DNA of 64,000 nt, taken from the NCBI RefSeq assembly GCF_003334405.1, contig NZ_QOWM01000007.1; one strand, given 5' to 3'. The notes beneath the pieces were generated by a model. That model was not told the DNA's origin, searched no databases, and worked only from the letters and a program-made list of their open reading frames with translations. Numbering within the stretch: the first letter of the stretch is position 1; every line of letters begins with the position of its first letter. Positions 18,008-18,033 of this stretch are shown here, piece after piece. The stretch comes from Escherichia coli. GTDB taxonomy: Bacteria > Pseudomonadota > Gammaproteobacteria > Enterobacterales > Enterobacteriaceae. The translations under genes and the position numbers were made by a program.

Positions 18008-18033
18008 GCCTGGTAAGCACCCGCTTACCAGGC
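18008..18033 (+). other. perfect 11-bp stem hairpin in mnmG-rsmG intergenic region (no U-tract)
   Basis: GCCTGGTAAGC-ACCC-GCTTACCAGGC. Confidence 0.6.

Follow-up and report, generated by a model that had tools for sequence, protein, structure and literature searches.

What does a perfect palindrome do in the short gap between mnmG and rsmG, two genes that are read in the same direction? We addressed this question in a window of 64,000 nucleotides, which is the whole stretch of DNA analysed here, numbered from its first letter. By its sequence, the window belongs to E. coli K-12. A 701-base segment around the palindrome is 100% identical to K-12 strains (BW2952 and MG1655 derivatives), and 5425 of the 5426 complete E. 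coli genomes contain this region. The gene order within the window is asnC, mioC, oriC, mnmG and rsmG, followed by atpI onward. Window coordinates (w) are related to those of MG1655 (g; NC_000913.3) by g = 3941739 - w.

Anatomy of the mnmG-rsmG palindrome

The elements of the spacer and its two flanking genes are as follows:

16106-17995, plus strand: mnmG, with its stop codon TAA at 17993-17995
18002-18006, minus strand: U5 tract (an A5 run on the plus strand) that abuts the stem and lies 3' of it on the minus strand
18007-18034, either strand: full palindrome, a 12-bp stem with a 4-nt loop, TGCCTGGTAAGC-ACCC-GCTTACCAGGCA
18008-18033: 11-bp core of the palindrome, GCCTGGTAAGC-ACCC-GCTTACCAGGC
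18048-18051, plus strand: Shine-Dalgarno-like AGGT of rsmG, in the context AACAGGTA..gtg that is kept in nearly all loci
18059-18682, plus strand: rsmG, with a GTG start at 18059-18061

A first-pass annotation of this DNA had described a perfect 11-bp hairpin at 18008-18033, starting 12 nt past the mnmG stop and ending 25 nt before the rsmG GTG, and both its sequence and its coordinates proved right. An additional pair, T18007/A18034, lengthens the stem from 11 to 12 bp and places it 11-12 nt from the mnmG stop. Seven of the 12 stem pairs are G-C, and the hairpin alone has a folding energy of -21.6 kcal/mol on either strand. The palindrome is flanked by AAAT and AACG within a spacer of 63 nt and sequesters neither the Shine-Dalgarno sequence nor the start codon of rsmG. 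When placed in an 81-nt context, the plus strand folds at -28.6 kcal/mol compared to -15.5 ± 2.8 kcal/mol for shuffled sequences (z = -4.66; 0 of 200 shuffles as good). The hairpin is thus not a product of chance. For the minus strand, the same context yields -35.6 kcal/mol (z = -4.77 against shuffles). Among the perfect looped inverted repeats of the 64-kb window, this one is the longest, and a pattern search allowing three mismatches returned it as the sole match there, with 0.00 expected. A scan of positions 15000-21000 with the covariance models of Rfam 15 gave nothing at the hairpin and three chance-level matches elsewhere (E > 5).

Dyad symmetry of this kind may also bring to mind an operator in double-stranded DNA, bound by a dimeric protein that regulates rsmG or mnmG, and a protein-binding site was among the functions proposed in the first-pass annotation. 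The symmetry is the one feature that speaks for it. Against it, G+C-rich 12-bp arms set 4 bp apart have the form of an RNA or single-stranded DNA hairpin rather than that of a typical operator, and the arms change by compensatory substitution instead of keeping a fixed half-site (see below). Moreover, no promoter is predicted adjacent to the palindrome, and the MG1655 record has no feature annotated there. We therefore regard an operator as most improbable.

Transcript ends on the two strands and probable antisense termination

On the plus strand, the stem is followed by AACGCATC, which starts with AACGCAUC and contains no U-run, and the curated Term-seq lists hold no sense 3' end at this site. 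Both observations agree with the earlier view that the hairpin is unlikely to be an intrinsic terminator in the sense direction, which was right. The description of the hairpin as lacking a U-tract, however, is true of the plus strand only: the A5 run at 18002-18006 is a U5 tract on the minus strand. The possibility of an antisense terminator had been missed because one strand only was considered. Read on the minus strand, the site is UGCCUGGUAAGC-GGGU-GCUUACCAGGCA followed by UUUUUAAU, that is, 12 pairs closed by a GGGU loop. As the A5 run lies on the mnmG side of the palindrome, the element has the layout of a one-way terminator for the opposite strand. A consensus terminator scan of 15500-19800 recovered the site on the minus strand with 12 pairs, compared to 5-6 pairs at the other three sites, and left it unflagged on the plus strand.

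The published data locate transcript ends at exactly this place:

18001/18002, minus strand (plus in NC_000913.3): antisense RNA 3' ends determined by Term-seq (PMC7815308)

The curated MG1655 list (Adams et al. 2021, eLife; PMC7815308 supplementary file 1) reports 3' ends at 3923738(+) with 1404 reads and at 3923737(+) with 1233 reads, both of which are classed as 'antisense, mnmG'. These ends are located 5-6 nt past the stem within the U-run, which is the canonical place for intrinsic termination. The string printed for the antisense 3' end is ACCTGTTCTTGATGCGTTGCCTGGTAAGCGGGTGCTTACCAGGCATTTTTAATGCGTTATG. Printed strings in this file are 61-mers carrying the 3' end at base 51, as checked on sgrS, where this base is the last U of the U8 run. 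The printed string thus reads ...GCCTGGTAAGCGGGTGCTTACCAGGCATTTTT(A) up to the end, and the RNA ends ...CCAGGCAUUUUU(A). The prefix 39237 was found three times in the file, which comprises three growth-condition sheets; two of the entries belong to LB OD 0.4 and to a second sheet. No other 3' end on either strand is listed within 3923400-3923999 under the three conditions. A comparison with published Term-seq data, as suggested in the first-pass annotation, hence did reveal a 3' end, but on the antisense strand and not on the sense strand. With about 1200-1400 reads, both ends are among the lowest entries of the curated list, in which the smallest count is about 850; the antisense RNA is hence rare.

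Rho appears a poor candidate for stopping this RNA. No Rho region is listed on the minus strand at the hairpin (PMC7815308), although absence from the list is weak evidence. Across 18000-18199 the minus-strand RNA contains much G and little C, which makes it a poor Rho substrate, so that stopping it would fall to an intrinsic terminator.

As to the origin of the antisense RNA, the Cappable-seq supplement contained no coordinates matching an antisense start. A sigma-70 weight-matrix scan and a -10 scan of the minus strand returned weak candidates only, at 18585-19124; the weak -10-like boxes are found 690-1116 nt upstream, in the 3' end of rsmG and in the rsmG-atpI spacer. This spacer (18683-19286, 604 nt) is strongly AT-rich (31-39% G+C). 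Several weak -10 boxes on its minus strand are possible starting points for antisense RNA across rsmG, and the spacer also contains the best promoter-like site of the region, TTGAAA-16-TATAAT at 19180-19207 on the plus strand, upstream of atpI. Wherever it starts, an antisense RNA ending at the terminator is complementary to the Shine-Dalgarno sequence and start codon of rsmG. We also considered an open reading frame of 103 amino acids antisense to rsmG (18388 to 18077, minus strand), which is codon-aligned with the gene and whose stop precedes the terminator by 43 nt. Because the frame is kept open in no more than 34 of 80 loci and is interrupted by a stop in E. albertii, we rejected it as a chance open reading frame. 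The p19 dsRNA set places RNase III-derived duplexes inside mnmG only (U00096.2 3922418 and 3923074). Some antisense transcription is accordingly present beyond the terminator.

Taken together, we consider it probable that the hairpin is a one-way, Rho-independent terminator acting in the antisense direction and built on a single-copy, REP-related palindrome. Direct support comes from its anatomy, from the published antisense 3' ends in vivo, from the lack of listed sense 3' ends and from its kinship with REP-like hairpins. An RNA polymerase moving antisense to rsmG would enter the palindrome at 18034 and leave it at 18007. The emerging RNA would fold into the G+C-rich hairpin of 12 bp, followed by UUUUU, and would be released at 18002/18001. 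Antisense RNA overlapping the ribosome-binding site and the 5' part of rsmG would thereby be halted before entering mnmG. In the sense direction, the hairpin lacks a U-run 12 nt behind the mnmG stop and would be read through in the mioC/mnmG-rsmG transcript, which would end at the rsmG terminator at about 18770-18815. This reading takes the 3' ends to be produced by termination rather than by trimming. Against it, exonuclease trimming can likewise leave a 3' end beside a stable hairpin, and a perfect palindrome may in principle give rise to library artefacts.

Two further features are relevant to the sense transcript:

18130, plus strand (NC_000913.3 3923609, minus there): marker of a Rho-termination region, score 2.49 (PMC7815308 supplementary file 2)
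18770-18814, plus strand: intrinsic terminator of rsmG, GCCACGTT, a 22-nt loop, AACGTGGC and T7

In published work on selective processing and stabilisation of E. coli RNA, mioC-mnmG-rsmG is given as one transcription unit, 3922924-3926477 (window 18815-15262; PMC10667835). The rsmG terminator coincides with the published end of this unit (3922924, window 18815); our consensus scan missed it because its loop exceeds 8 nt. The Rho marker is located 96 nt past the hairpin in the sense direction, within the first 72 nt of rsmG, and the plus strand across 18000-18199 is C-rich and G-poor (C>G skew -0.196). A second published Rho-termination region lies at window 16119 (3925620), just inside the 5' end of mnmG, with a score of 3.12 (PMC7815308).

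The hairpin may instead, or in addition, act as a REP-like element on the sense mRNA. It would slow the terminating ribosome and might pause RNA polymerase or block exonucleases, while Rho-dependent attenuation early in rsmG and differential decay would set mnmG above rsmG; such a role could coexist with antisense termination. Several observations are consistent with this. REPs can serve both as stabilisers and as partial Rho-dependent terminators (bioRxiv 10.64898/2026.03.23.713779), and those less than 16 nt from a stop codon reportedly lower translation of the upstream gene (Liang et al. 2015, as cited in PMC12306157). The Rho region at 18130 would fit an attenuation step, and RNA-seq baseMean values of 6967 for mnmG and 883 for rsmG correspond to a per-nucleotide ratio of roughly 2.6. 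However, no sense 3' end was found at the hairpin in three Term-seq conditions, although mnmG mRNA by far exceeds the antisense RNA. PMC10667835 lists no RNase-dependent site in the mnmG-rsmG spacer and flags the operon neither for selective processing nor for stabilisation. The same data bear on the proposed comparison with published RNase cleavage sites, and together with the missing sense 3' end they fail to bear out the earlier suggestion of an RNA-processing or stabilising structure. A REP-like effect of the hairpin on the sense mRNA is possible but unsupported, and we entertain the wider sense-strand account only tentatively.

Variation within Escherichia and in orthologous spacers

A 42-nt element comprising the hairpin is found in 5420 of 5426 E. 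coli genomes, at a median of 1 place per genome, and has the perfect K-12 form in 4180 of these 5420. An A-to-G change in the 3' arm, present in 702 genomes (13%), leaves the sense RNA paired by U.G but puts a C.A mismatch into the antisense RNA. E. whittamii carries two arm transitions that are likewise paired on the sense RNA only. These arm variants make the antisense hairpin less stable, at -16.9 or -13.0 kcal/mol compared to -21.6 kcal/mol. That natural arm variants keep sense pairing via G.U speaks for a role of the sense RNA, but three G.U-compatible substitutions are too few for significance (p about 0.125). The loop has an A-to-C change in 309 genomes (O157:H7), and an A-to-T change in the middle of the stem causes a mismatch on both strands in 124 genomes, including Nissle 1917 and ABU 83972.

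A variant of the 42-mer with CCGGGC, unlike the K-12 form, has a second, partial match outside the window in most E. coli genomes (median 2 places). The IS1A of E. coli BE104 (locus 558-1321) was considered as an insertion into the hairpin and rejected; it lies about 100 nt into rsmG and splits the gene, leaving the hairpin intact. Strain EC16 shows a broken match in rsmG.

The comparison between K-12 and E. albertii separates the hairpin from its surroundings. Divergence at 4-fold sites of the flanking genes amounts to 37%, yet the 37 spacer bases that surround the hairpin, the A-run among them, have 0 substitutions (P = 3.5e-8). The A5 run is invariant in 8 Escherichia sequences and is A6 in E. 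albertii. The hairpin itself differs at 6 of 26 positions, including a compensatory change from G:C to A:T, with pairing kept; its rate is about neutral, as the difference from 37% is not significant.

To view the element beyond Escherichia, we used RsmG to collect 80 loci, 76 of which yielded the mnmG-rsmG spacer. Most genera possess one or two G+C-rich hairpins of the REP/BIME type, such as TGCCCGGTGGCGCTACGCTTACCGGGCCTAC with an inverted partner behind it. Unrelated hairpins occur in Citrobacter, Klebsiella/Raoultella, Siccibacter, Kosakonia and Pantoea/Erwinia. Two Cedecea and four Atlantibacter loci contain a sense-strand terminator, consisting of a hairpin and T4-T7, between mnmG and rsmG, and these predicted terminators suggest that the two genes are partly uncoupled there. 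A hairpin was detected in 54 loci; measured downstream from the mnmG stop, its start lies at a median of 13 nt (15 nt or less in 43 loci), and at least five unrelated sequences are represented. The site just past the mnmG stop thus bears a strong hairpin in nearly all Enterobacteriaceae, with the hairpin sequences turning over. This conserved position despite unrelated sequences is a further argument for a function on the sense mRNA. The strand fold energies of the 76 orthologous spacers do not favour it: the minus strand is the more stable one in 49 and the plus strand in 26, a comparison confounded by G+U content and hence set aside as a guide to which RNA is under selection.

The minus-strand terminator shape was detected in 4 of 77 spacers, namely K-12, E. 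albertii and, weakly, Leclercia and Yokenella. That this shape is not kept outside E. coli and E. albertii, and that the antisense RNA is rare, both count against the terminator reading. They are what would be expected of a decaying REP/BIME remnant with no selected function on either strand, whose antisense 3' end is incidental and arises where pervasive antisense transcription meets a hairpin and a U5 tract. REP-like hairpins with a CTAC/GTAG tail in the spacers of Enterobacter, Citrobacter, Kluyvera and others, with the first of which the E. coli flanks align, are in line with such an origin, as are the near-neutral divergence of the hairpin and the mid-stem mismatch of 124 E. coli genomes. 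Maintenance of the structure argues against decay. An alignment of the first hairpin from 27 sequences has 78% of its cells paired, and 8 of 12 pairs have changed on both sides, a result matched by 0 of 500 shuffles; the G:C to A:T exchange in E. albertii, the prevalence of the perfect form among E. coli genomes and the A-run flank, invariant across Escherichia compared to 20-37% change at 4-fold sites, point the same way. We judge a functionless remnant to be possible, albeit somewhat unlikely.

Under the preferred reading of an antisense terminator, we infer that the halting of antisense RNA has been selected for and is not just a by-product. None of the low read counts, the restricted shape and the antisense-weakening variants argue for strong selection on it.

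A more elaborate view would assign both strands a role in Escherichia. The minus-strand terminator would belong to a cis-antisense RNA that tunes RsmG, whose last ~50 nt are complementary to the Shine-Dalgarno sequence and start codon of rsmG. The sense hairpin would act as a brake on MnmG termination or feed Rho-dependent attenuation, and both would jointly set the ratio of the tRNA-modification enzyme to the rRNA methyltransferase. We keep this view open because the 37 flanking spacer bases are invariant across Escherichia, compared to 20-37% change at 4-fold sites, and yet we consider such dual use improbable.

Relation to REP elements and other known systems

The hairpin of K-12 shares 19 of 28 positions with the REP-Y consensus (TGCCTGAT..CTTATCAGGC; p about 0.0006 against composition-matched random palindromes), a likeness that has been counted above in favour of a REP-like role on the sense mRNA. 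The E. albertii hairpin shares 20 of 28 (p below 0.0002 against the same kind of control). The consensus used is multi-copy in E. coli, with at least 40 places per genome. Orthologous hairpins of other genera carry the CTAC of the CTAC/GTAG tail that is missing here, and the E. coli flanks align with the first REP-like hairpin of C. sedlakii and Enterobacter. From these similarities the palindrome is probably REP-derived. We call it so, rather than filing it as a REP, because it lacks the CTAC/GTAG tail and is single-copy. The MG1655 record gives no REP even at the obvious BIME between pstA and pstB (33289-33352), where a Z-type REP (GCCGGATGCGGCGTGAACGCCTGATCCGGCCTAC) stands beside an inverted short Y-type REP (GTAAGCCTGATTAGCGAAGTGCATCAGGCA), and its REP annotation is therefore uninformative for the palindrome.

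As a kind, the feature is ordinary and already known, an intrinsic terminator that is built on a REP-derived palindrome. A public supplementary table already contains the raw antisense 3'-end signal, of which we found no discussion in the literature. The import beyond annotation is little, namely that a hairpin lacking a U-tract on one strand can terminate transcripts of the other, as public 3'-end data indicate here, along with a small added example of a REP-derived palindrome turned into a unidirectional terminator. Loss of rsmG confers low-level streptomycin resistance. If the antisense RNA regulated rsmG, antisense control would be tied to a streptomycin-resistance gene, although no finding here shows such regulation.

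Compared to the Y-type REP/BIME elements of Enterobacteriaceae, the palindrome is similar in being extragenic, in the match of its arms and in the REP/BIME pairs that occupy the orthologous spacers. It differs in being single-copy, in the missing CTAC/GTAG tail, in a perfect stem without the usual G.T mismatches and in a shortened inner part. Its distance of 11-12 nt from the mnmG TAA, within 15 nt of the stop, is shared with the stop-codon-proximal subclass of REPs that is linked to translational down-regulation, a brake marked by ribosome stalling, mRNA cleavage, tmRNA tagging and reduced protein output (Liang et al. 2015, as cited in PMC12306157). Like the bidirectional terminators between convergent genes, it combines a symmetric hairpin with a one-sided A-run and stops transcription arriving from the opposite side; unlike these, it has the A-run only and is unidirectional, directed against the flanking genes, which are arranged in tandem and not convergently. 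The sense terminators or attenuators of Cedecea and Atlantibacter are G+C-rich as well and occupy the same place, 14-17 nt past the mnmG stop, but carry a T-run (T4 to T7) on the sense strand and are unrelated in sequence. The remaining comparison is that with the terminators of cis-antisense RNAs (the 'antisense' class of Adams et al. 2021). Here, the element is set apart by its position between two co-oriented genes, neither of which it serves, and by a transcript that is unnamed and of low abundance; it shares with them a G+C-rich 12-bp stem, a 4-nt loop, a U5 tract and a 3' end 5-6 nt past the stem.
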